DNA from: Methylomonas sp.
GTDB taxonomy: Bacteria > Pseudomonadota > Gammaproteobacteria > Methylococcales > Methylomonadaceae
DNA length: 57,476 nt
Assembly: GCA_026989395.1 (NCBI GenBank)
Contig: JALSJK010000116.1
Span: 1-57,476 of the forward strand
Reading direction: 5' to 3'
The notes under the pieces were generated by a model. The model saw only the letters and a list, made by a program, of their open reading frames with translations, had not been told where the DNA came from and did not search any database. A program made the position numbers and the translations under genes. Shown one piece after another: positions 30,191-49,196 of the stretch. Each line of letters begins with the position of its first letter. Position 1 is the stretch's first letter.

Positions 30191-30351
30191 TAGTTGTTTG
30201 CTAGGTTTTTACTGCACTAAATCCAGGGATAACATCTTGAATTGACTGCATGAAATGAAACCGGGAAAAATTCCCGCGTATTCGCAAGAAGCATTCCCGT
30301 TACATTTTTGGTTTTATGTTTGATAATGCTGGATTTTTACACGGGATTATC

Positions 30352-30870
30352 ATGAAACCAAACAGACTATTTTTCTTAATGTTGTTCCTTGTTTCTCTGG
30401 GAGTTAATGCTCATGGACCCACTCCCCAAAAGGCCGATGAAAGTATTATTATTAATGCGCCAATTGACAAAGTCTGGGTGGCGATAAAGAATTTTGACAA
30501 AATTTCAGACTGGCATCCTGATGTGCAAGCAAGTACCGGAGATGGCCAAAATAAATCAGATGGCGAGCGTATTCTGACATTATCAAATGGGGAGATTAAA
30601 GAAAGTCTGGATTATTATAGCGATGCCGATCATGAATACAGTTATCGTTTGAAAACTGAAAATACCGAAGCTTTTCCAGTGAGTTCCTATACAACTTCTA
30701 TACAATTGATAGAGGAGGGAGATAAAACCAAGGTTAAATGGAAAAGCCGGTTTTATCGGGGTGATACTGGAAACACTCCTTCAGAAAAACTGAACGATGA
30801 AGCCGCAGTGAAAGCCATGAAAGGTTTTATTCAAAATGGTTTGAAGGGTTTGAAAGAGACCTTGGAATAG
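30352..30870 (+). CDS. mxaD: MxaD-like SRPBCC-fold periplasmic protein (methanol dehydrogenase accessory)
   Basis: Signal peptide, then 'IINAPIDKVWVAIKNFDKISDWHP', typical of the polyketide-cyclase/SRPBCC fold. Lies next to mxaB and the mxa cluster. Start at the internal Met (MKPNRLFF). Confidence 0.55.
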   Translation: MKPNRLFFLMLFLVSLGVNAHGPTPQKADESIIINAPIDKVWVAIKNFDKISDWHPDVQASTGDGQNKSDGERILTLSNGEIKESLDYYSDADHEYSYRLKTENTEAFPVSSYTTSIQLIEEGDKTKVKWKSRFYRGDTGNTPSEKLNDEAAVKAMKGFIQNGLKGLKETLE

Positions 30871-30871
30871 C

Positions 30872-31852
30872 ATGTTCCGTTTAGTGTTGATCTTGTTGAT
30901 GTATTGCAATAGCGCTATCAGCAGTTCCTATTTGTTTATAAACCAGCAACAAGGAGATACTGTTAGTGTATTTGATCGTGATACGTTAAGTTTCAAGACA
31001 AAAATGCCCGCACTGGAAGGTCCTGCGGGCATTGCCATACATGGTGATAAGCCATGGATTGCTGTTACTTATCCAGAGCAGGGCATGGTCAGCTTTTTTG
31101 ATACTGAAAAACTCATTCCTTTGGAGCACCTCAGTGTTGGAGGTAGCCCTTTTGGTGTTGTTTTTGCCAACAAGCTGCTTTTTTATTCCGATTGGGATGC
31201 CGGCATAGTGGGGGTGATTCAGCCCAGTACGGGGCGAGTAATAAAAAAAATTATAGTTGGAAAATCACCGGCAGGAATAGCGACTGACGCTTGTGAATCC
31301 CAGGTCTGGGTATTAAACAGGGAAAGTAATGATGTTTTTGTGATTGACAGTAATCGGCTTAAAGTCATAAAAAAAATAACTGTTGGAGCGGCGCCTTTTG
31401 CACTTGCTTTAGATGAGCAGTTTGCCTATATCGCGAATTCTCAGGAAAACACGCTAAGTATTGTTGATTTATCAGATTTCACAGAAATAAAGCGTATAAA
31501 GGTCGGGCGTATGCCTTATGGTGTCGCAATAGACAGAAAACAGCAAAAAGTTTATGTGAGCAACCAACTGGAGAATACGGTTACTGTGCTGGACTCCCGC
31601 TCTCATAAGGTTATTAAAAGCATCGCTACCGGAGCCTATCCCGAAAACATTGCTGTCGATGAAAAAAATCGGCGATTATTTGTATTGAACTGGATGGATG
31701 CGAATATAAGTGTATTTGACAGTCAGACAGGTAAAGAGATCAAGAAAATTAATGTCGCTGAAGGAAGTCGTGCTTTTGGGCAATTTGTAAGTAATCCTGA
31801 AAAATGTCAGGCTGTGAAGGGTCTATTGAAAAAACAAGCCATGAGGAGATAG
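30872..31852 (+). CDS. YVTN-family beta-propeller repeat protein (periplasmic)
   Basis: Repeated 'V.V.D......I.VG..P.G.A' blocks (e.g. 'VWVLNRESNDVFVIDSNRLKVIKKITVGAAPFALA'). Signal peptide present. Translationally coupled to mxaD. Confidence 0.55.
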   Translation: MFRLVLILLMYCNSAISSSYLFINQQQGDTVSVFDRDTLSFKTKMPALEGPAGIAIHGDKPWIAVTYPEQGMVSFFDTEKLIPLEHLSVGGSPFGVVFANKLLFYSDWDAGIVGVIQPSTGRVIKKIIVGKSPAGIATDACESQVWVLNRESNDVFVIDSNRLKVIKKITVGAAPFALALDEQFAYIANSQENTLSIVDLSDFTEIKRIKVGRMPYGVAIDRKQQKVYVSNQLENTVTVLDSRSHKVIKSIATGAYPENIAVDEKNRRLFVLNWMDANISVFDSQTGKEIKKINVAEGSRAFGQFVSNPEKCQAVKGLLKKQAMRR

Positions 31853-31897: not shown

Positions 31898-31932
31898 CAC
31901 CTGTGATCCGTATTGCAATCACGGATTCAGGT
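31898..31932. terminator. bidirectional hairpin between the convergent YVTN gene and mxaB; also a copy of the REP-like repeat
   Basis: 'CACCTGTGATCCG-tattgcaa-TCACGGATTCAGGTG' is an imperfect 13-bp stem. Confidence 0.45.
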
Positions 31933-32586
31933 GTCAGAATGTATTAACCCTTGACGGTTAGCCAGCAGTGTAAATTCGGCAACTGTTTTGGCCGCAAGTT
32001 TTTCTTTGATGGCTGTGCTGTGGTTACATACGGTTTTATAGCTTAAATGCAGTTTGGCTGCTACTTCACGAGGACTGTTGCCATTGGCCAGTAAACAAAA
32101 AACATCGAATTCACGCGGTGAAAGCAGTTTTATTTTATATTCATCGTCTTGTTCAGTAATCATGTTGACAGCAAGTTGCTGCGCCATATTCGCATCAATA
32201 TAATATTCTCCTTTAGCGATTGAACAAACAGCGGTTACTAAAGTTTCAGGTACACTGCTTTTGCTGATAAAACCTTTTGCTCCCGACTTAATAGCCCGCG
32301 TCGCATAGACAAGTTCATTGTGAATGCTGAATACCAATATTTTGCATTGAGGGTCTCGGGTAATTAGTCGCCGAATACATTCCAGTCCCCCCATTCCAGG
32401 CATTGATAAGTCCATTACTACAACATCGACAGGTTGTTGTATGTAACGTTGGCAAGCTGTTTCTCCGCAGTCTGCCTCAATAATTTCACCAATTTTTTCC
32501 GAGAAAGATAGATAAGACTTATAACCTTCTCTAACTACCGCATGGTCATCTACAAGTAATACACTGATTTTTGACATGATCAACAA
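31927..32586 (-). CDS. mxaB: NarL/FixJ-family orphan response regulator MxaB
   Basis: Receiver 'VLLVDDHAVVREGY...D' plus a C-terminal LuxR-type HTH 'LSPREFDVFCLLANGNSPREVAAKLHLSYKTVCNH'. Divergent from mxaF, as in other methylotrophs. Confidence 0.7.
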   Translation of the reverse strand: MLIMSKISVLLVDDHAVVREGYKSYLSFSEKIGEIIEADCGETACQRYIQQPVDVVVMDLSMPGMGGLECIRRLITRDPQCKILVFSIHNELVYATRAIKSGAKGFISKSSVPETLVTAVCSIAKGEYYIDANMAQQLAVNMITEQDDEYKIKLLSPREFDVFCLLANGNSPREVAAKLHLSYKTVCNHSTAIKEKLAAKTVAEFTLLANRQGLIHSDT

Positions 32587-32972: not shown

Positions 32973-33043
32973 AAACAAACATTTAACTGTGTCTGGCAGA
33001 TGCTTTTTTTAATCAAAAGAACTAAAGTCAATCAGGAGGAAAC

Positions 33044-36709: not shown

Positions 36710-37723
36710 TTGAATAATCAACTTAGCGATTGGCGTGAACAAGCCTTACAATTTGAACAACAAATCAACCGGACTGTTTTAGGTCAGCAACAAGCGATAA
36801 GAAATTGCATTATCTCGGTTTTTGCGCGCGGCCATGTGTTATTGGAAGGGGGTGTTGGCGTGGGAAAAACAACACTGCTAAGAGCAATAGCGCAGGGACT
36901 TGGAGGAGCTTATCAGCGTATCGAGGGAACGATAGATTTAATGCCTGCCGATTTGATTTATTACACTTATCTCGATAATAAAGGCAAGCCGCAGGTGGAC
37001 CCCGGGCCTCTGCTTAAACAAGGTGAAAACCTGGCAACCTTTTTCTTTAATGAGATAAACCGGGCTAGACCCCAAGTTCATTCTCTGCTGCTCAGAGTGA
37101 TGGCTGAGCGCAGTGTTAGTGCCTTTAATCAAGTGTATCAGTTTCCCCATATACAGGTTTTTGCAGACAGAAACCGGATAGAAAAAGAAGAAACATTTGA
37201 ATTGCCTGCTGCTGCTCGTGATCGTTTCATGATGGAAATTAACATTGACATGCCGGATGATGATGTTCATTTGACTGAGCTGGCTTTTAATTCCCGTTTT
37301 CACGATGTTGATAAGTTGATTGGCGCAGTAGAGCCAGGAAAGATTGCATATTTTGAATTGAATGAATTGGCAATGCAGATTCAACAGACTATTCAATCAA
37401 GCTCGGCATTGAAAAAATATGTTCTTGATTTATGGAAAGCAAGCAAACACCCTGAAAAATACGGTATCAGACTCAGTGATACTGAGATGGAGCAATTAAT
37501 TCAGTCGGGAGCCAGCCCCAGAGGGGTTAGTTATTTAATCAGAGCGGCCAAGGTCAATGCCTGGATGGCAAACAGGACATCTTTATTGCCAGAAGATATA
37601 CAAGCAGTATTTCCCGTGACTATGGGACACCGAATTTTTTTAAGTCCAGTTTATAGCTATCGCAAAGAGCAGCTGCTACCCGAACTAATCACAAATATTC
37701 TTGAAAGGATTGCCGCGCCGTAG
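36710..37723 (+). CDS. mxaR: MoxR-family AAA+ ATPase MxaR
   Basis: Walker A 'GGVGVGKTTLLRAIAQ' and Walker B 'LATFFFNEINRARPQV'; 337 aa. Apparent TTG start. Confidence 0.85.
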   Translation: MNNQLSDWREQALQFEQQINRTVLGQQQAIRNCIISVFARGHVLLEGGVGVGKTTLLRAIAQGLGGAYQRIEGTIDLMPADLIYYTYLDNKGKPQVDPGPLLKQGENLATFFFNEINRARPQVHSLLLRVMAERSVSAFNQVYQFPHIQVFADRNRIEKEETFELPAAARDRFMMEINIDMPDDDVHLTELAFNSRFHDVDKLIGAVEPGKIAYFELNELAMQIQQTIQSSSALKKYVLDLWKASKHPEKYGIRLSDTEMEQLIQSGASPRGVSYLIRAAKVNAWMANRTSLLPEDIQAVFPVTMGHRIFLSPVYSYRKEQLLPELITNILERIAAP

Positions 37724-37757
37724 TGGAACAACTCATTATTATAAAAAATATCAAGTC

Positions 37758-38387
37758 ATGACCAAACAACAATTAATTAAAGTTATCACACCTGCCAGTG
37801 GGTTTAGTGATTTGCTGGGAGTGTATTTAAACTGGACTGGTGTCGGTTTTATCAGCGCAATAATTGCCGAACGGCTTGATCATTTTAGCGGGGTTACTTA
37901 TGCCACTTTTTATACAAGCTCACTAAATTCAGCGATTGGAGTGAAGTTCTGGGCATTAATCAGTATTATCGGATTATTGCTTTTTTGTCTAAGTCTTCCG
38001 TTTATCTATTTAGCCAATTATCGTACCCAGTTTAAAACCAGTTGCCAGCGTCTGCGTTATTTTACCTATGGTTTTTTTCTGGTCGCTTTTGATGAAGGGG
38101 CTTTAATATTAGGTATCTTGATAGCTAATATGATTCACGTCAATGAGCGGGCAGAATTATTATCCAGTCAGTCATTTTTGTTCACTGAGGCAAGTGTATT
38201 GAGTATCGTGGCATTAATAGTTGGCAATTCAGTACTCTGGTTGTTGGGAGAGTCGTTATATAACCGGCAGAGTAAGGACTATTCGGGGGTTGTTAATCTT
38301 ATAATCAACAGCCCTTTGAAATACAGTTTGCCGGTGTATTTATTGTTTACGTCATTGTTTGTTGCACTGGTCATCAATCAATCTTGA
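37758..38387 (+). CDS. hypothetical polytopic membrane protein inserted between mxaR and mxaS
   Basis: ~209 aa from the internal Met 'MTKQQLIKVI', with 4-5 TM helices. The ORF is AT-rich compared with flanking mxa genes. Its stop abuts the mxaS start (TGAAATG). Confidence 0.45.
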   Translation: MTKQQLIKVITPASGFSDLLGVYLNWTGVGFISAIIAERLDHFSGVTYATFYTSSLNSAIGVKFWALISIIGLLLFCLSLPFIYLANYRTQFKTSCQRLRYFTYGFFLVAFDEGALILGILIANMIHVNERAELLSSQSFLFTEASVLSIVALIVGNSVLWLLGESLYNRQSKDYSGVVNLIINSPLKYSLPVYLLFTSLFVALVINQS

Positions 38388-41115: not shown

Positions 41116-41675
41116 AAAAAACCATGCAGCACTTTACATATTGGATAGTGTTTTTTATTGCTTTAACTGGTGCAATTTATACGGCCTATTCAGGTTACAA
41201 AACAGCGCAAATTAACCAACTGATCAGTCAGCTTAATCAGGGCAGGGATATTGAGCCAAAGCAAATGAAAAATGCAACGCCGGAGCTGCAATTGGCGAGA
41301 GCGATTTATCTTAAAAACAAAAAGCGTTATAAAGAGGCGCAAGCCACTTTGAGTTTGATTATCAATCAGGGCACACAACAGCTGCAAGCTATTAGTCGCT
41401 ACAATCTTGGCAACACGTATTTGATACAAGCCATCGAATTTGCAGAGGCCTTGCAAATTAATGAGGCATCAGCGTTGGCGGCACTGGCCAAGCAAGCATA
41501 TCGGCAAGCATTGGCTTTGGACAGTCACTATTGGGATGCAAAATACAATTTAGAAGTGGCTGTGCGTTTGTTGCCGGAAATGGATCGTATCACGATGGAG
41601 CGAGATGACCCCGTCCCGCAGGAAAAAGCAAAGCTATGGGCGACAGTCCCAGGTTTTCCTCGCGGGTTGCCATAA
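41112..41675 (+). CDS. mxaK: MxaK (TPR-like membrane-anchored protein)
   Basis: 187 aa with an N-terminal TM helix and TPR-like helical repeats (AIYLKNKKRYKEAQATLSLII). Start ATGA overlaps the mxaC stop. Confidence 0.5.
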   Translation: MKKTMQHFTYWIVFFIALTGAIYTAYSGYKTAQINQLISQLNQGRDIEPKQMKNATPELQLARAIYLKNKKRYKEAQATLSLIINQGTQQLQAISRYNLGNTYLIQAIEFAEALQINEASALAALAKQAYRQALALDSHYWDAKYNLEVAVRLLPEMDRITMERDDPVPQEKAKLWATVPGFPRGLP

Positions 41676-41682
41676 ATCCGCC

Positions 41683-42657
41683 ATGAATGTTAGTTTTATT
41701 TCAAAAAATCTTAAAGATTACCGGTTTTATTGCCTGAGTCTGGCGTTTTTGGCTATGCTGATTTTGTTTTTAAATCCGGAGGTTATCAGGTCTCGTCCAG
41801 TTTATAATTTTACCTTTATTGTTGATATTACCCGAAGCATGAATGCTCGGGATTATCAAATCGAAGGTGAAGCGGTCAGCCGTTTACAATTTGTTAAAAA
41901 GGCGTTAATTAAAGCGGTGGTTAACTTGCCTTGTCAGTCCAAAGTAGGTTTGGGAGTTTTTACAGAGAGAAAATCTACTTTATTGTTCGAGCCCATCGAG
42001 GTTTGTTCGTCATTCACAGAAATTGATAGTGTTATTAATGCATTAGACTGGCGAATGGCTTGGGCAGCCGATAGCCGTATCAGTAAAGGCATAGCCAGCA
42101 TTATTGAGCAATTAAAAGGCAGCGATTCTCAAATTATTTTTTTGACTGATGGACAGGAAGCGCCGCCAGTGAATCCACGCTATAAAATGGATTTTAGTGA
42201 CTTGAAAGGTAAGTTGAATGGGATGCTGGTTGGTGTGGGTGGGCTGCAAAATGTACCTATCCCAAAATATAATGCCCAGGGAAAACAGCAGGGGTTTTAT
42301 CAGCCTGATGATGTTCCCCATCGATCAACATTTGGTTTGGCGCCAACATCATCTGCTCCGGTAGGAAATTATAATGCAAGAAATGCCCCCTTTGGCGGTG
42401 CAAAAGTAGTAGGCGATCAGCATTTAACACGTCTCTATGAATCCTATTTACAGGAGTTGAGTAAAGATATTGATTGGTTTTATCATCGACTGGAAACCAG
42501 AGAATTACTCGGTAAAGCGCTGCTAAGGCCTCAGTTTGCAAAGCAAAAGCAAGTATTGTCAGATATGCGTGCATATCCAGCATTATTTGCCTTGATTATG
42601 TTAAGTCTGGTTTATTTGCCGCAATTGAAAAGTAAATCAAACAAGAATACTCCTTGA
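41683..42657 (+). CDS. mxaL: von Willebrand factor A domain protein MxaL
   Basis: 'FIVDITRSMNARD' (DxTxS MIDAS) and a C-terminal TM helix. Start at the internal Met (MNVSF); the ORF-track start overlaps mxaK. Confidence 0.7.
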   Translation: MNVSFISKNLKDYRFYCLSLAFLAMLILFLNPEVIRSRPVYNFTFIVDITRSMNARDYQIEGEAVSRLQFVKKALIKAVVNLPCQSKVGLGVFTERKSTLLFEPIEVCSSFTEIDSVINALDWRMAWAADSRISKGIASIIEQLKGSDSQIIFLTDGQEAPPVNPRYKMDFSDLKGKLNGMLVGVGGLQNVPIPKYNAQGKQQGFYQPDDVPHRSTFGLAPTSSAPVGNYNARNAPFGGAKVVGDQHLTRLYESYLQELSKDIDWFYHRLETRELLGKALLRPQFAKQKQVLSDMRAYPALFALIMLSLVYLPQLKSKSNKNTP

Positions 42658-42855
42658 CGATGGATTTTTTGATGTTTAGCCTAAAAATTATCGAATTTTA
42701 AAGCCCTTACTTGAACTTTTAGGCCATTTGACGGAAACAATAGTTAAATGTGGTTCAATAAAAGCCAATGAACCCTAAAATGTCGATTCCAGTTTGATAC
42801 AAATAATTGAATTTGATACGCTGCTCGACTGGGACATAGAAACTTAGGTGGTGCT

Positions 42856-43494
42856 TTGGGTAATCCTGTAGATGAAAAGGTTGGAGTAGCATTACTTCAG
42901 CGCATCGCGGCAAAAGACCGTAAGGCATTTGAGGAGTTTTATTATTTGTATGCTGAGGGTTTCGGCCGATTTTTGATGAAAATGCTCAAGCAACACGAAT
43001 GGGTAGATGAAGCGGTGAATGATGTGATGCTAACTGTCTGGCAAATAGCAGATCGTTACGATCCTGAACGGGGACGGTTATCCACTTGGTTGTTCGGTAT
43101 TGCCCACAATAAAGGTCTCAAGCTATTGGAACGCAACGGACGTTACTGGGAAGAGTCACTTGAGGACCATCCAGTTGAGATCGACAGAGATGAAAAGGTC
43201 GATGACAGTTCTTACGGTTCTGTTCTCCCTTCGACTTTCAAACCAGAGCGCGAGGTGATGGGATGGGAATTAGGCGATGCGATGAGTTGGGCATTTGAAA
43301 AACTTTCACCGAATCATCAGGCGGTTATCGAATTGTGCTTTAGTGAAAACTTCACTTACCAGGAGATCGCCAATATTATGGATTGCCCGTTAAATACCGT
43401 GAAAACCCGCTTATTTCATGCACGCAAGCGGTTGGCTGAAATATTGGCGAGCAAAGGTTTTTCGCTGTCTGATCAGGTAAAAATTGAACTATGA
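42856..43494 (+). CDS. ECF (sigma-70 family group IV) RNA polymerase sigma factor
   Basis: Region 2 'FEEFYYLYAEGFGRFL' and region 4 'ELCFSENFTYQEIANIMDCPLNTVKTRLFHARKRL'. Apparent TTG start preceded by 'TAGGTGG' SD. Confidence 0.8.
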   Translation: MGNPVDEKVGVALLQRIAAKDRKAFEEFYYLYAEGFGRFLMKMLKQHEWVDEAVNDVMLTVWQIADRYDPERGRLSTWLFGIAHNKGLKLLERNGRYWEESLEDHPVEIDRDEKVDDSSYGSVLPSTFKPEREVMGWELGDAMSWAFEKLSPNHQAVIELCFSENFTYQEIANIMDCPLNTVKTRLFHARKRLAEILASKGFSLSDQVKIEL

Positions 43495-44198
43495 TAAAGC
43501 GTCAAGACAACAAGATTTCGTCTTACGATCACGATGAATTAATCAACTTAATACCTTGGTACGTTAAAGGTAAGTTAACGGCTAACGAAAATGCTGCGGT
43601 TAAGCAACACCTGGACGATTGCGAAAGTTGCAGACAAGAAGTATCGAGGTGTCAAGCATTAGCAGGTTCACTGCCTAAACCTGCTGAACCATGGAAGCCA
43701 TCCGCCGCACATTTTGCTGAAATATTAGTTGGTGTGGATAAACTTGAAGCAGCGGAAAAACTGAATTCATCTGACATTACTGTTCCGAAAGTCGGGTTTT
43801 TCGACCGGGTTCGTCAATTATTAGCCCAAACGCCACGGCCAGTACGTTGGACTTTGGCGGCAGAAACGTTGGCTTTTGCCATCCTTGCCGTTGTGTTATT
43901 GCCTGGGCAACTCAATATAGCTAAAACCGGCACATTTGAGACACTATCCAATGCTGAAACGCCAACGTCTTCTTCAGGCCTAATGCTACGCTTGGTCATA
44001 TCAGATGATATGACAGCAAAGGAGCTATCCGAATTATTACTGCAAACAAACGCACAAATACGCCAAGGCCCTTCCGAAATTGGTGTGTACACGCTTGAAA
44101 TACCTGCTGGAGATGCCGCCAAAGCGCAGTCAACTTTACGGGCGCATCCTAAGGTCAGGCTGGCATTGCCAGTAGAAACAGCTACGCCTAGGCCATGA
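43491..44198 (+). CDS. zinc-finger (ZAS-type, HxxxCxxC) transmembrane anti-sigma factor
   Basis: N-terminal 'HLDDCESCRQ' H-x3-C-x2-C motif, one TM helix 'LAFAILAVVLLPG', and a ~90-aa C-terminal periplasmic domain. ATGA overlap with the sigma factor. Confidence 0.6.
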   Translation: MIKRQDNKISSYDHDELINLIPWYVKGKLTANENAAVKQHLDDCESCRQEVSRCQALAGSLPKPAEPWKPSAAHFAEILVGVDKLEAAEKLNSSDITVPKVGFFDRVRQLLAQTPRPVRWTLAAETLAFAILAVVLLPGQLNIAKTGTFETLSNAETPTSSSGLMLRLVISDDMTAKELSELLLQTNAQIRQGPSEIGVYTLEIPAGDAAKAQSTLRAHPKVRLALPVETATPRP

Positions 44199-45421
44199 AG
44201 CAATATAGGTATTTCAGCCTCCTGTGTGCCGCCATACTGACAGGTATAACAGGATGTTCACAGTTGTCAGGCATATCATCGGATAATCCGGCTTTACCCA
44301 AGCAAATGTTGGCACGGCAAGTGCTGGTGACGTTGCCGGATTCACTTAAGCCAAAATGGTCTTCTATACGGCAAGAGCTCGCTAATCAACACAAAATTTC
44401 GGTAACAGGCGAGTTTCCACTACCCTCCATAGGTGTTGATTGCCTGGTTTATAAGGTCCCTGATCAACTTCCTATGGATCAAGTTATAGCCAGGCTACGC
44501 TCAGATAAGCGCGTAGGCTTGGTGCAGGAAAATCAAGTATTTGAAGGCATTCAAAGTGGAAAAAGCGACATTTTTGCTGCTATCAGTTATGCCGCAAAAT
44601 TAACGCACGTTGAAAGCGCGCATAGGATCACGACTGGTAAGGGTATCAAGATTGCTGTCGTTGATACTGGGGTTGAAAAAGAACACCCTGATTTAAAAGG
44701 GCAAATTGGGCAAACCGCTAATTTTGTTGAAGGTGGTGACCGTAGCTTTGCCCGTGATAAACATGGTACGGCTGTTACAGGTGTGATTGCCGCGCGCGCG
44801 AATGATGGCATTGGAATCTATGGTATCGCACCAGAAGCTGACATTAGCGTATTGAAAGCCTGCTGGTATCAGAGCCAAGACGATGCCAAGGCGCAATGCA
44901 GTAGTTGGACATTAGCCAAGGCGCTTGATTCAGCAATTACTAGCGGGGCGCGTATTATCAACCTTAGTCTGGCTGGTCCAGACGATGAATTAATGACCAA
45001 GCTGCTTGAGACGGCTCATGCCCGCGGCATCAACATAGTGGCGGCAACTTTAGAGCAACAGGAACAACCGGGTTTTCCCGCCAATTTACCGGAAACTATC
45101 CCTGTTATTTCTACAGGACCGGATGGAAATCCTCCTCAACCAACCTGGGTAGCCCAATTTCCAAGTACAGTCGCTGCGCCAGGGAAGGAGATTTTGACCA
45201 CAGTGCCTAAGGAAGGGTATGATTTTGTCTCCGGCAGCTCTTTGGCTGCCGGCCATGTCAGCGGTATTATTGCGTTACTGCTGGAATTGAACCCCGAGCT
45301 TACTCCGGATCAAATCAAGGAATTACTCCATGACAATAGCAAAAGGGGTGCCGCCAATTCCCTGTCTGTACTTGATATTTGCGCTATCATAAAAATACTC
45401 CTAAAAGGTGAAGGTTGCTGA
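44195..45421 (+). CDS. subtilisin-like serine protease (peptidase S8) lipoprotein with N-terminal propeptide
   Basis: Lipobox 'ITGCSQ'. Catalytic triad motifs 'VAVVDTGVEKEH' (Asp), 'HGTAVTGVIAA' (His) and 'GSSLAAGHVSG' (Ser). ATGA overlap with the anti-sigma gene. Confidence 0.8.
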   Translation: MKQYRYFSLLCAAILTGITGCSQLSGISSDNPALPKQMLARQVLVTLPDSLKPKWSSIRQELANQHKISVTGEFPLPSIGVDCLVYKVPDQLPMDQVIARLRSDKRVGLVQENQVFEGIQSGKSDIFAAISYAAKLTHVESAHRITTGKGIKIAVVDTGVEKEHPDLKGQIGQTANFVEGGDRSFARDKHGTAVTGVIAARANDGIGIYGIAPEADISVLKACWYQSQDDAKAQCSSWTLAKALDSAITSGARIINLSLAGPDDELMTKLLETAHARGINIVAATLEQQEQPGFPANLPETIPVISTGPDGNPPQPTWVAQFPSTVAAPGKEILTTVPKEGYDFVSGSSLAAGHVSGIIALLLELNPELTPDQIKELLHDNSKRGAANSLSVLDICAIIKILLKGEGC

Positions 45422-45433
45422 ATGAGGAAGTAA

Positions 45434-46777
45434 ATGGTCTCATGGGATGCTATTTGGCACCGATCATGCCGCCAGAATAACTGGATTGCTAGCAATAGAG
45501 TTTGGGCAAGTTGCTGTTTTGTTTTGGTGTTGACAGTTCCCCTGGCAGCTTGGCCTGCTGAGAGTTTCTGGCAAAGTTTGATCGGCGGTAAGCCAGACCT
45601 GTCCCTGCGCTATCGTTTTGAATATGCCGATGACGCCAAACCGGGGCTTAAAGAAGCTTACGCGTCTACTTTGCGTACCGCGACAGGGTATCGTACGGAT
45701 ACTTTTTACAACTTAAGCGCCTACTTCCAAATCCAAGATGTCAGGGTTATCGGTAATGATGACTGGTACAATGACGGTTCCAACAATGTTTTAGACCGGG
45801 CAGTCATAGCAGATGCGGAAGGCACAGAAATTCAGCAATATTATCTGCGTTACGGCGGTTTGCCCAAGACAGTCGTAACCTTAGGCCGTCAGGAAATTAA
45901 CCATCGACCAGGTACGCAACAGCGCTTTCTGGGTAATGTGAGTTGGCGACAGCATTTTCAAAGTTTTGATGCCGCGAACTTAGTGAGTCTGGCAATTCCA
46001 CATACAGTAGTTGATTACAGTTATATCTGGAACGTCAACCGTATTTTTGGCGAGAGTAACCCGCTGCCAGATGCTGATGACTTTCGCTCCAACAGCCATG
46101 CTTTGAATGTTCAATACAGCGGATTGCCTGGCTTGAAACTTGAAAGTTACCTTTATCTGCTGGAATTCACCTCAACTACCGCACGACGGTTTTCAACTGC
46201 AACTACTGGATTGCGTGCTCAGGGCGACCGCATTATCGCAACGGGCTTACGCCTTAACTATACAGGGGAATTTGCCTATCAGCAGGATTACAGCAATAAC
46301 CCAAATGCGGTTTCAGTCAATTATGCGTTTGCTGAACTTGGTTTAAATTATGTCGTAGACGGAGTGCTAGAATCCATCGGACTAAAATACGGCTATGAAC
46401 GCCTGGAAGGTGAGGGCGGGCAGCGATCTTTTCAAACTCCATTGGGAACCAATCACGCCTTCCAGGGTTTTGCCGACCGTTTTTTGGTGACTCCTGGTGA
46501 TGGAATACAGGATCATTGTGTTACACTTTCCGGTAAATTGGCAAATACGCAAGTAAGCATCGCCTATCACCATTTCCTTTCGGATAAAGACAATTATCAA
46601 TATGGCTATGAATGGGATGTCTTTGCCGAACATTCCTTCAATAAGTATTATTTGGCAGGCCTAAAATTCTCATATTATCACGCTAATTCTAATAGCATTA
46701 ATCTCACCCGCAATGCTGCAACAGGTCAAGCATTCGACCTTACCCGTTTTTGGACTTATCTCCAGTTTTCTTATTAG
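45434..46777 (+). CDS. outer-membrane beta-barrel protein (alginate-export/porin-like)
   Basis: 447 aa with alternating amphipathic beta-strands rich in Y/G/T. C-terminal 'TYLQFSY' has an aromatic terminus. 'GAGGAAG' SD. Unusually long signal n-region. Confidence 0.5.
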   Translation: MVSWDAIWHRSCRQNNWIASNRVWASCCFVLVLTVPLAAWPAESFWQSLIGGKPDLSLRYRFEYADDAKPGLKEAYASTLRTATGYRTDTFYNLSAYFQIQDVRVIGNDDWYNDGSNNVLDRAVIADAEGTEIQQYYLRYGGLPKTVVTLGRQEINHRPGTQQRFLGNVSWRQHFQSFDAANLVSLAIPHTVVDYSYIWNVNRIFGESNPLPDADDFRSNSHALNVQYSGLPGLKLESYLYLLEFTSTTARRFSTATTGLRAQGDRIIATGLRLNYTGEFAYQQDYSNNPNAVSVNYAFAELGLNYVVDGVLESIGLKYGYERLEGEGGQRSFQTPLGTNHAFQGFADRFLVTPGDGIQDHCVTLSGKLANTQVSIAYHHFLSDKDNYQYGYEWDVFAEHSFNKYYLAGLKFSYYHANSNSINLTRNAATGQAFDLTRFWTYLQFSY

Positions 46778-46900
46778 TAGAAAATTTTTCGAAAAATAAT
46801 TTGAACAATTTCGATCCTTAACCGGAATCATGAGTCAGGGAGGAATTAAAACTTCCTAAACTCAACATTTGTTAATTATTTATTATTTGGAGATTCCATT

Positions 46901-47515
46901 ATGAAAAATCAAACTCATTCATTTAAGGCTATTGCATCCTTGGCGCTTGTTAGTTCCGTACTACTTTGTTCTCAGGCAAGTGCTACTGACTGGAAAAGAC
47001 TTAAATTTCCGCTCGTCCGTCCAGCTGTTTTGGACGATTCCTGTGCTCCACATGCCAGAGGTAAGGTAAGGGTCACTACCCTTGGCAATGTTGAGGTTAT
47101 GGATGTAAAAATCGTAGGGTTGCCAAAAAATACCGAATTCGATGTCTTTGTCATTCAGGTACCTGATTTTCCGTTTGGTATGTCCTGGTATCAAGGCGAT
47201 ATTCAAACCAATCACAGAGGCAAGGGTTATGCTCGATTTGTTGGCCGTTTCAATGAAGAAACTTTTATCGTGGCACCCGGTACACCTGCTGTTGCACCGC
47301 TGACACATGATGCTGACGCAGGAGAGAACCCTGTTACCAATCCGGTTCACACCTACCATATCGGCATTTGGTTTAATTCTCCAGCTGATGCAGTGAAAGC
47401 TGGTTGTCCTGGCGCAGTAACACCGTTTAATGGGGAGCATAATGCAGGTATACAGATATTGAATACCAGTACGTTTGCGGATGAAGAAGGGCCATTATTA
47501 AAGATTAAGCCTTAA
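46901..47515 (+). CDS. secreted hypothetical protein
   Basis: 204 aa with signal peptide 'LALVSSVLLCSQASA' and 3 Cys in the mature part. No recognisable family. Confidence 0.4.
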   Translation: MKNQTHSFKAIASLALVSSVLLCSQASATDWKRLKFPLVRPAVLDDSCAPHARGKVRVTTLGNVEVMDVKIVGLPKNTEFDVFVIQVPDFPFGMSWYQGDIQTNHRGKGYARFVGRFNEETFIVAPGTPAVAPLTHDADAGENPVTNPVHTYHIGIWFNSPADAVKAGCPGAVTPFNGEHNAGIQILNTSTFADEEGPLLKIKP

Positions 47516-47795
47516 GTAAAAATTGTGACCTATGGAGTAGGTTGTGCTAACCGGTTGAGTTGGAGATCAGGTAGATCCCAACTCGCCTACCCTATGTGTC
47601 AGCCTATTAGACGCCAATTATCTTGACCAGTTGAGTGTAGCCATTTCACTTGTACGAATACCGATCGTAGATCGACTGATCCATCATTCACATATTTTTA
47701 TTTTGGGAGCTGAAAGCTATCGATTAAAAGCAAAACTGAGTCACTAATTTTACCACGAAAAAGTGGCTCAATTTTGGTGGCCATTGACAAATGGC

Positions 47796-49196
47796 TTATT
47801 GCAGCCCCACTTTTCCAATTTTTCTTGAATTGGTAGTGGTTGCTAACGCCTCAAGTCCAAAATTTTCAGACAATTCCCGTTCCTGGGGCGTTGTGCTATT
47901 GGCTTCATTTAATAATGCCTGTAGCTTATCTCTTTTATTACTGCTATTGTTTTTTTCTGGTTGCTCTGTTACAAGTTGAGTATTGTGCGGGCCTGAGCGA
48001 AGCACCGGGTCATTTTTTGAATCTACCAGACCGGAAATCACCGAGATCAGATTGTCTTGTAATCTCTCTGGGAAGCCGCTTTGACAAAGCGCCTCAATGG
48101 CGGAATTTATTTGTTGAATTCCTTCGGCAGCAATATCAAATTTTTGTTTCTCCAATTCGTTTAGTTGCTTTGATGCCTTAATTGTTGCTTCGGCTTTGAT
48201 TTGTTCGGCCTCCGCAAGGATCGCTGCGGCTTGCTTTTCTGCTTGAGCGATTTCCAGAATCTGCTTGATTTTCTGTTCGGCCATTTGTTTTTTCTTGGCC
48301 AATTCAAATTCTGTTTCTTGTTCGGCCAGGTCAATTTCCTTGGTTTTCTGGATTTCTGCCCGAAGCTTTAATGTTTCTTGTCTTTGTTTTTCCAGTTCAT
48401 GCTGTTCTGCCAATTTAGCTTTAGACAGCCTATGCTGTTTGCTTAATTGTTCTTTGGCAACATCGGACTCGATTGCAATACGACATAAATTAATCTGTTT
48501 TTCTTGTTCAAGCCGCATGGTTTGTTTTTTTCTTTCAATTTCGAGCAGTAATTTTTCAGACTCGATTTCCTGGCTTTTTAGTTCGACATTTATTTTGGAT
48601 GTTAGCAGGGCTTTTGCTTTTTGTTCTATTGGGTTGGTTTCTTGATAAAACTCAAGCGCTGTTGGGGTGATAGTTTGGAGTGTTACTGATTCGAGCATTA
48701 AGCCGTTCTGTTGTAATTCAGTTTCCAGATGGTTATGAATTTTCTCTGCAAAATTTCTCTGTTGTTCGAGGATTTCCTTCATGGAAAGAGATGCTGCGGT
48801 TTGGCGTAAACTGTTCTCCAGTTTGCCTTTCAGAAATTTTTTTAAAGCCGACTTTTTTGTGGTTAATTTTCCCAGCGTTTGGCCAGCTTTAACAATGTGT
48901 TTTTCATCCGCAGGAACCCGGATGTAAAAATCAACCGAGACATCAAGTTTCAGGTGATCTTTTGTCAATAAAGCAGAATTTTCCCTGGTTTTAATGTTCA
49001 AGCATTGGCTATTCAAATTAATGGGGATAACCTGATGAAGAAGCGGCAGCGCAAAAGCGCTTTTATCAAGGAGGATTTGCTCGCCGCCATAGCCAGAAAG
49101 GATATAGGCAGTTTTTTTACTGCCACGTTTATATCTATTGGAAAACAGGAAGACAGTAGCCAAAAAAGCAGCTAAAAGAAAAGTAGTTAAGCCCAT
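47796..49196 (-). CDS. flotillin-like SPFH/band-7 domain membrane protein (YqiK/FloA-like)
   Basis: N-terminal TM helix, SPFH core, then a long E/K/Q/A-rich coiled coil (EQKIKQILEIAQAEKQAAAILAEAEQIKAEA). Confidence 0.65.
   Translation of the reverse strand: MGLTTFLLAAFLATVFLFSNRYKRGSKKTAYILSGYGGEQILLDKSAFALPLLHQVIPINLNSQCLNIKTRENSALLTKDHLKLDVSVDFYIRVPADEKHIVKAGQTLGKLTTKKSALKKFLKGKLENSLRQTAASLSMKEILEQQRNFAEKIHNHLETELQQNGLMLESVTLQTITPTALEFYQETNPIEQKAKALLTSKINVELKSQEIESEKLLLEIERKKQTMRLEQEKQINLCRIAIESDVAKEQLSKQHRLSKAKLAEQHELEKQRQETLKLRAEIQKTKEIDLAEQETEFELAKKKQMAEQKIKQILEIAQAEKQAAAILAEAEQIKAEATIKASKQLNELEKQKFDIAAEGIQQINSAIEALCQSGFPERLQDNLISVISGLVDSKNDPVLRSGPHNTQLVTEQPEKNNSSNKRDKLQALLNEANSTTPQERELSENFGLEALATTTNSRKIGKVGLQ

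Follow-up and report, generated by a model that had tools for sequence, protein, structure and literature searches.

What ties a sigma factor, an anti-sigma factor and a subtilisin-like protease to the methanol oxidation (mxa) genes beside which they are encoded? The question is raised by a stretch of Methylomonas DNA of 57,476 nucleotides (57 kb; hereafter the window, to the whole of which all coordinates refer), where five open reading frames (ORFs) at 42856-47515 follow mxaL on the plus strand. An earlier reading of the letters alone, here termed the original prediction, took these five genes for one module, proposed that its protease gates a sigma/anti-sigma switch, and raised a connection with methanol oxidation. 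The explanation that we favor, to which we give about an even chance as a whole, is that the first three genes make up an autonomous, self-promoted cassette of extracytoplasmic function (ECF) sigma factor, zinc-type anti-sigma (ZAS) factor and S8 subtilase, that this cassette works as a protease-coupled switch with the S8 enzyme as its likely site-1 protease, and that its adjacency to mxaL is incidental. The five genes are as follows.

42856-43494, plus strand: ORF1, ECF sigma factor, 212 amino acids (aa), with a TTG start codon and AGGTGG ahead of the start
43491-44198, plus strand: ORF2, ZAS anti-sigma factor, 235 aa
44195-45421, plus strand: ORF3, S8 subtilase lipoprotein, 408 aa
45434-46777, plus strand: ORF4, secreted protein of 447 aa (labelled OMP447)
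46901-47515, plus strand: ORF5, secreted protein of 204 aa (sec204)

This same-strand arrangement of five genes is exactly as had been described. Start and stop codons overlap as ATGA at the sigma/anti-sigma and anti-sigma/S8 junctions, and gaps of 12 nt and 123 nt separate the S8 gene from ORF4 and ORF4 from ORF5, respectively; both gaps had been given correctly, but the three ATGA overlaps that were claimed come down to two.

What is conserved in this arrangement was judged from a survey in which an alignment of the anti-sigma factor was scanned over one genome per species, yielding 80 loci (loci of this and later comparisons are numbered with an L). The sigma, anti-sigma and S8 genes follow one another in the same order and on the same strand in 63 of the 72 loci with enough downstream sequence, and the sigma gene stands directly ahead of the anti-sigma gene in 75 of 77. 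Kept in so many independent loci, the arrangement is not the product of chance. The loci come from many phyla, and the cassette is widespread in Proteobacteria and Acidobacteriota; its hosts include Methylococcales, Xanthomonadales (Dyella, Lysobacter, Rhodanobacteraceae) and Burkholderiales, and further Sphingomonas, Caulobacter, Cohaesibacter, Rhodospirillum and several Acidobacteriota. All other genes around the triad vary from locus to locus, among them genes for small putative outer-membrane proteins, CxxCH porin-like proteins and CHRD/cytochrome c proteins. The conserved core is the first three genes, while the 447-aa protein and sec204 are lineage-specific additions; the notion of a conserved five-gene unit has to be given up. 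Among the variable neighbors outside the Methylococcales is a signal-peptide protein of about 240 aa without a Pfam match (cluster c3; L018, L024, L042, L044, L050, L056, L080 and others), which flanks the triad in 17 loci and is possibly a small outer-membrane barrel. CxxCH porin-like, Ig-like and CHRD-domain proteins of clusters c5, c8 and c7 stand beside the triad in L027, L057, L061, L075 and L076.

The slot behind the anti-sigma gene is not reserved for subtilases. A Peptidase_C14 caspase fills it in Rhizobacter and Rhodocyclaceae (L064:10698-11591 and L077:10648-11520; E = 1e-32 to 1e-39), and an 886-aa TPR-CHAT protein does so in a member of the Holophagae (L065:2023-4680). The anti-sigma factors of all three loci are without the HxxxCxxC motif; the C-terminal sensor domain is kept in L064 and L077, and the C-terminal part is different in L065. 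What is constant is thus a sigma factor, an anti-sigma factor and a protease. This bears on a rival explanation in which the S8 protease is merely an output of the sigma factor, the anti-sigma domain senses a ligand, peptide or envelope damage, and a DegS/Prc-type housekeeping protease makes the site-1 cut. Many ECF operons carry target genes directly downstream, and the anti-sigma domain persists beside C14 partners, both of which this rival accommodates well; it leaves unexplained why a protease, drawn from three classes, should occupy the slot after the anti-sigma gene while other neighbors vary.

Is the cassette nevertheless part of the mxa system? In no locus of the 80 does mxaF, R, S, A, C, K or L lie within 10 kb, and the triad occurs in many non-methylotrophs, including Dyella, Lysobacter, Caulobacter, Sphingomonas and Acidobacteriota. 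Upstream genes are unrelated in close relatives of the window locus, namely L011 (81% S8 identity), L083 (76%) and L084 (75%), and in L082 (83%) the 800 nt of upstream sequence at hand contain no match to mxaL. The tie to mxa that had been raised therefore fails: the module is absent from the mxa loci of relatives, and linkage to mxaFJGIRSACKL(D) is not conserved across methylotrophs. In the window itself, the upstream gene order mxaFJGIRSACKL is confirmed (mxaF from 33044, mxaI from 36272), with mxaL (41605-42657) directly upstream of the sigma gene across a gap of 198 nt. An MxaD-like gene (30316-30870) adjoins mxaB (31927-32586, minus strand), consistent with the claim that mxaD has been relocated there. 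A functional tie would have the module co-transcribed with mxa and controlling or maturing methanol dehydrogenase components in mxaD's place. Such a tie can point to the adjacency to mxaL, which outside the window is shared only by a contig whose proteins are 98% identical, and to the mxaL-sigma gap, where no terminator was found. Indeed, a scan for simple terminators and sigma-70 promoters gave none above shuffle expectation and detected no terminator after mxaL or after sec204. Read-through from mxaL into the cassette is possible, which counts against its autonomy, but is not needed to explain cassette expression. Given the survey, and given that the cassette has its own conserved promoter (below) and that the promoter motif is not functionally placed ahead of any mxa gene, we regard a role in methanol oxidation as very improbable. 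The position beside mxaL would then be a recent, strain-level accident without functional meaning, and annotators of methanotroph genomes should keep the cassette apart from the mxa system. Other matches to the promoter pattern, at 33019 and 36342, were rejected, since one coincides with the ribosome-binding site of mxaF and the other falls inside mxaI.

The signals from which autonomous expression is suggested are these.

42712-42737, plus strand: P1, ECF-type promoter, TGAAC-N15-CGGAAA, 143 nt upstream of the sigma start
42738-42855, plus strand: conserved 5' leader of the sigma operon, 69% mean column identity in 6 loci
46802-46828, plus strand: P2, ECF-type promoter, TGAAC-N17-GGAAT, about 73 nt upstream of the sec204 start
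46836-46861, plus strand: hairpin in the sec204 leader, minimum-free-energy structure with z = -1.85

An ECF promoter had been expected within 42658-42855, and P1 lies there, but its sequence is not the GGAAC-N16-17-GTC-like one that had been guessed. Its consensus is TTGAAC-N15-C(C/G)G(G/A)AA(T/C), a motif with a background frequency of about 0.05 per kb, and it recurs 100-165 nt upstream of the sigma gene in L081, L082, L011, L083, L084, L002, L006, L007 and L008; it is kept in at least these nine loci although their upstream genes differ. Between P1 and the sigma start, the conserved leader contains a direct repeat, TTTGATAC, at 42793-42800 and 42812-42819, and may serve a second regulator as its operator or act at the RNA level as an element. 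The leader has no Rfam match; an Rfam search of window positions 42400-48000 at E <= 1 gave zero matches.

P2 is a second copy of the ECF-type promoter, and TGAAC-N17-GGAAT has its sole exact match in the window there. The same motif precedes sec204 in L011, L005, L001, L002, L004, L006, L012 and L009. It does so in every Methylococcales locus, even where sec204 is divergent from the sigma gene (L002) or where other genes intervene between the triad and sec204 (L001 and L012), and in one Burkholderiales locus. From this recurrence across relatives, the sigma factor probably controls sec204 directly in the Methylococcales lineage. Distant sec204 homologs stand alone without the triad, and the link between sec204 and the triad is therefore lineage-specific. 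The hairpin behind P2 is conserved in sequence in 7 loci with no two-sided compensatory changes; with a z of only -1.85 and no compensatory pairs, we do not claim a structured RNA there.

Extra P2-type copies stand ahead of small secreted-protein genes in relatives (L001:12080 and 13040; L003:9098; L082:4762 and 6719). The proteins behind them are one of 164 aa with DxDxDG-like repeats, two-Cys proteins of 147/150 aa, one of 173 aa, and a pair consisting of an 84-aa protein and a 180-aa HEAT_2 protein, all of them putative further members of the regulon. The presence of the promoter ahead of other secreted proteins in relatives is also what one might expect if the S8 protease were itself an output of the sigma factor.

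The sigma factor matches Sigma70_r2 (E = 1e-11), Sigma70_r4_2 (E = 7e-13) and Sigma70_ECF in Pfam and TIGR02937 in NCBIfam (80.2 bits against a cutoff of 42.9), its closest solved structure is R. sphaeroides RpoE (2q1z_A, E = 6e-16), and with σ2 and σ4 only, no σ3 or σ1, and about 200 aa it has the build of a group IV (ECF) sigma factor, as had been called. The best NCBIfam subfamily, PRK12515, scores under its cutoff, and ECF54, the one ECF group connected in the literature with subtilase/CHAT neighbors, was rejected as its home, that group being actinobacterial and without an anti-sigma factor.

The anti-sigma factor, on which the case for a protease-coupled switch turns, has the following parts.

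Residues 14-94 (43530-43772, plus strand): anti-sigma domain (ASD), matching zf-HC2 and the ChrR ASD
H14/H40/C44/C47, plus strand: zinc motif, H40-x3-C44-x2-C47 plus H14
Residues 116-135 (43836-43895, plus strand): transmembrane (TM) helix in the AlphaFold2 (AF2) model
Residues 149-153 (43935-43949, plus strand): linker motif [FY]-[ER]-T-L-[ST], conserved in 40 diverse members
Residues 164-228 (43980-44174, plus strand): propeptide-like βαββαβ domain, from PF22148, the AF2 model and Foldseek

The single-pass ZAS anti-sigma factor with an HxxxCxxC motif that had been proposed is borne out. Pfam assigns zf-HC2 (E = 5e-8), and a profile of 66 homologs matches the ChrR ASD over residues 14-94 (E = 6e-6), as well as RsiW, RslA and DdvA. 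In an AF2 model built from 66 sequences, the ASD has pLDDT >90 and the C-terminal domain 83-93, with one TM helix at 116-135 and a disordered linker at 138-159. [quoted passage not shown]

Does the periplasmic domain resemble a subtilase prodomain, as the original prediction had it? Several comparisons indicate that it does. The anti-sigma factor matches PF22148, the Fervidolysin N-terminal prodomain, above its gathering cutoff of 21 (22.4 bits for the whole protein, 24.4 for the domain alone), and of 71 partner S8 proteases, 5 have a pro-region that matches the same family. Moreover, aligning the domain profile with the S8 pro-region profile in hhalign brought 70 columns into register over the whole βαββαβ unit (P = 2e-4). 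A hidden Markov model (HMM) of the domain scored positively in 95 of 176 partner S8 proteases, 89 times within the first 150 residues and there always on the α2-β4 segment, with 0 matches among reversed-sequence controls. Foldseek superimposed the C-terminal domain on subtilisin propeptides at 2.1-2.5 Å with TM-scores of 0.66-0.75. By fold and by profile, residues 164-228 thus fall within the subtilase propeptide/I9-like class. The resemblance is real, though weak, and sequence and fold both support the view of the periplasmic sensor as a paralogue of the subtilase propeptide. The explanation of S8 as a mere output leaves this common prodomain family of sensor and partner pro-region unaccounted for; it can appeal to the generic fold, ACT-like ligand-binding domains scoring similarly. 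On balance we think it rather unlikely.

The sensor domain is widespread, with 3003 cluster representatives (50% identity) at E <= 1e-3, of which 390 reach <= 1e-10. Among the best 150 of its matches, almost every protein is about 230 aa long and carries the domain at its extreme C-terminus; a 409-aa match (P0436) was disregarded as it looks like a chimeric gene call. The cassette thereby defines a large, unannotated family of anti-sigma sensor domains.

The partner protease has three parts.

44195-44257, plus strand: signal and lipobox, ...LTGITG-C21, up to C21
About residues 36-127 (44300-44575, plus strand): pro-region, matching PF22148 in 5 of 71 members
Residues 148-385 (44636-45349, plus strand): catalytic domain with D157/H190/S349 and oxyanion N256

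A lipoprotein S8 protease with a propeptide of its own had been called, and every element of that call is found. ORF3 matches Peptidase_S8 (E = 7.5e-38) in Pfam and subtilisins and thermitase in the PDB (E = 1e-45 to 1e-49); the subtilase triad D157, H190 and S349, in Asp-His-Ser order with the DTG, HGT and GxSxA motifs, and the oxyanion residue N256 are invariant among 71 homologs, as is C21 of the lipobox ITGC (71 of 71), which fits the [LVI][ASTVI][GAS]C pattern and marks a lipoprotein. Ser at position +2 suggests, by the E. coli rule, that the protein is sorted to the outer membrane. Its predicted pro/mature junction reads D-P-[YFL]-A-x-L-[QS]-Y, which aligns with the Y↓AQSVPYG site of subtilisin. 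The family has cysteines beside that of the lipobox: C83 in the pro-region, C223 and C235 flanking an inserted loop (KACWY...KAQCSSW), and a further pair near the C-terminus, which ends ...GEGC. These conserved cysteines suggest periplasmic disulfides.

How might such a protease act on such a sensor? The best reading of these sequences is a protease-gated switch, and we infer that the S8 protease acts on the anti-sigma factor through the propeptide-like domain. Once matured and anchored in the outer membrane, the S8 enzyme would dock on that domain and cut or degrade the anti-sigma factor, the likeliest site being the juxtamembrane [FY]-[ER]-T-L-[ST] motif, whose sequence resembles the [YFL]-A-x-L-[QS] of the S8 junction. 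The short anti-sigma stub would then pass to site-2 (RseP-type) and cytoplasmic proteolysis, freeing the sigma factor, which would transcribe from P1, giving autoregulation and more protease, and from P2, giving sec204.

Several observations weigh against this switch. Only 4 of 45 diverse anti-sigma factors reach PF22148 at E <= 0.01, and in an exhaustive domain search no subtilase N-termini appear among the best 150 of its matches that are listed, so that propeptide homology is not proven by that route. The fold itself is a common ferredoxin-like one, with RRM, ACT and S6 domains scoring similarly against the anti-sigma domain. The likeness between the linker motif and the S8 junction comes down to three positions. 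The sensor domain is kept with a caspase partner and consequently cannot count as a binder strictly specific to S8. Finally, true propeptides have a C-terminal tail that enters the active site of the protease, and the tail past the last strand of the anti-sigma domain is 0-10 residues long, not conserved, and short or absent in several members.

These last points touch in turn on a titration or inhibition mechanism, in which the anti-sigma domain is a tethered I9-like pseudo-propeptide that binds mature S8 and thereby protects the anti-sigma factor or silences the protease. Absence or misfolding of S8, or its diversion by substrates, would set the sigma factor free, and the protease would thereby be held at a homeostatic level. 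The tail needed for product-like inhibition of the active site is missing or variable, caspase partners have no I9-type inhibitors, and the S8 enzyme, by its +2 Ser, is a predicted outer-membrane lipoprotein while the anti-sigma factor sits in the inner membrane. We consider such titration decidedly unlikely; the caspase substitution favors a protease that cleaves the sensor over a sensor that inhibits a subtilase.

With cleavage as the preferred course of events, the cassette can be set against known systems. The σE–ChrR pair of R. sphaeroides (ECF11; 2q1z/2z2s) is the best solved match of both proteins and has the same H14/H40/C44/C47-type ligand pattern. ChrR, however, is soluble, with a C-terminal cupin that senses singlet oxygen, whereas the cassette anti-sigma factor spans the membrane, has a periplasmic propeptide-like domain and comes with a dedicated protease gene. 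With the σE–RseA–DegS–RseP and σW–RsiW–PrsW systems of regulated intramembrane proteolysis (PrsW being another bacterial site-1 protease), the cassette shares a single-pass anti-sigma factor with a cytoplasmic ASD, an autoregulated ECF promoter and, as proposed here, a first cut in the periplasm at site 1, after which site-2 and Clp proteases take over. A 2020 review names DegS, DegP, signal peptidases and Prc as bacterial site-1 proteases, with subtilases absent (PMC7593790). Neither these proteases nor PrsW are subtilases, are encoded in the sigma operon or are recruited through a propeptide mimic, the last being what is proposed for the cassette S8. The cassette would therefore bring in a class that this list lacks, and its sensor domain offers a structural reason for binding S8. 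That domain is of the same class as the BPN' prosegment, the Tk-subtilisin propeptide and POIA1 (PF22148/PF05922), but forms the C-terminal part of an anti-sigma factor; subtilase propeptides sit N-terminal to their protease, and the active-site tail at the C-terminus of the cassette domain is short or absent.

In eukaryotes, the cleavage of SREBP and ATF6 begins with a luminal cut by S1P/SKI-1, an S8 subtilase, after which the site-2 protease (S2P) releases the transcription factor. By analogy, an extracytoplasmic cut by a subtilase would here license an intramembrane protease of the S2P family. We entertain, tentatively and with less confidence than the cassette reading as a whole, the stronger form of this comparison, namely a bacterial counterpart of S1P->S2P in which an operon-encoded subtilase is recruited by a propeptide-mimic sensor, in a modular design where C14 proteases are swapped in by some lineages. 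If so, the switch would report the maturation or activity state of S8. SREBP and the cassette differ in that their substrates are unrelated and that SREBP is without a propeptide-like docking domain, and nothing indicates that the two pathways share an ancestor.

A dedicated protease gene beside an ECF sigma gene is also found in the CRISPR-linked systems CalpL–CalpT–CalpS and Craspase (TPR-CHAT–Csx30–RpoE) and in ECF54, and the TPR-CHAT variant of the cassette in L065 recalls Craspase. Protease-gated ECF switches, in which the protease is proposed or shown to release the sigma factor, are on record for the CHAT/caspase and subtilase classes (PMC8999054). ECF54, which is actinobacterial, has subtilase/CHAT neighbors and no anti-sigma factor (PMC8999054). 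The CRISPR-linked switches are cytoplasmic and linked to defence, whereas the cassette has a ZAS anti-sigma factor and is proposed to act in the periplasm. No known anti-phage defence system was recognized by PADLOC among the five proteins: S8 alone was matched, by the generic 'subtilase' model and weakly by IetS, and the other four gave none. The main text of the ECF reclassification paper mentions no subtilase-linked group with an anti-sigma factor (PMC7826278). Our literature searches on anti-sigma factors with subtilisin, subtilase or methanotrophs found no description of the cassette. As such, we see in it an uncharacterized but widespread variant of ECF/anti-sigma signaling with a dedicated, swappable protease rather than a new kind of system.

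Bacteria have in pairs of ECF sigma and anti-sigma factors their third major mode of signal transduction, and for most ECF groups we know of neither the signal nor the site-1 protease. The cassette offers a concrete, testable case in which a candidate site-1 protease is encoded in the operon.

What, then, are the two additional proteins of the window locus? The 447-aa protein, which adjoins the triad only in L081-L084, L011, L005, L009 and L002, is probably an outer-membrane β-barrel, to judge from a hydrophobic signal at the N-terminus, the lack of hydrophobic runs >4 beyond residue 50, and a C-terminus reading ...YLQFSY. These barrel-like features agree with the barrel that had been predicted, but the protein could be assigned to no known barrel family: it has no Pfam match even at E <= 10, which leaves the suggested Alginate_exp/AlgE-type identity unsupported, and no NCBIfam or PDB sequence match. 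Nor did hhalign relate it to the porin-like neighbor clusters c8, c3 and c31 of other phyla.

The fifth gene product carries a Sec signal peptide and is predicted to be secreted, as expected from the start. Searches with sec204 gave no Pfam match at E <= 10 and no NCBIfam or PDB sequence match. Its AF2 model (pLDDT 77, pTM 0.70) has a superoxide dismutase (SOD) β-sandwich fold, and in Foldseek its top 50 PDB matches are all Cu,Zn SODs or domain II of the copper chaperone for SOD (CCS), the best at E = 1.5e-4 with a TM-score of about 0.5. A canonical Cu,Zn SOD was nonetheless rejected: such enzymes have six His and one Asp as ligands and match the Sod_Cu profile, which sec204 does not, and conservation in sec204 extends, among other residues, to C48/C169 and to just three His (H150, H153 and H180). 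On the model, sec204 is SOD-like in fold and outside the SOD family. Its own family comprises >3400 secreted homologs of about 205 aa without a Pfam or NCBIfam model; its conservation is unusually high, with 55-60% identity among Methylococcales, Paraburkholderia, Halioxenophilus, Chthoniobacterales and Steroidobacteraceae and with the invariant motifs FGMSWYQGD, GRFNEETFIVAP, HTYHxGxWFNSPxDA and TPFNGEHNAG. The P2 association would link this very large, unannotated SOD-fold periplasmic family to a regulator for the first time.

The window as a whole matches an 84-kb metagenome contig (ENA ERZ27262642), and its nearest named relatives are Methylococcales metagenome-assembled genomes. A megablast of the whole module against plasmids gave zero matches. 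At 47557-47584, 40 nt past the sec204 stop, there is an inverted repeat of 11 bp, GAGTTGGAGATC...GATCCCAACTC, which is near-perfect and lacks a T tract. It may serve both sec204 and the convergent flotillin-like gene at 47796-49196 (minus strand) as a terminator, either factor-dependent or bidirectional. Elsewhere in the window, the MxaD-like protein, a Polyketide_cyc2 protein of 184 aa, is followed after a gap of 1 nt by a YNCE-like β-propeller protein of 326 aa (30316-31852 together), the pair standing upstream of mxaB, divergent and on the opposite strand. Between mxaR and mxaS, a hydrophobic 228-aa ORF without a Pfam match (37701-38387) reaches, as called mechanically, a few codons into each of the two genes, and in the 98%-identical contig a 209-aa gene is called at the same position.

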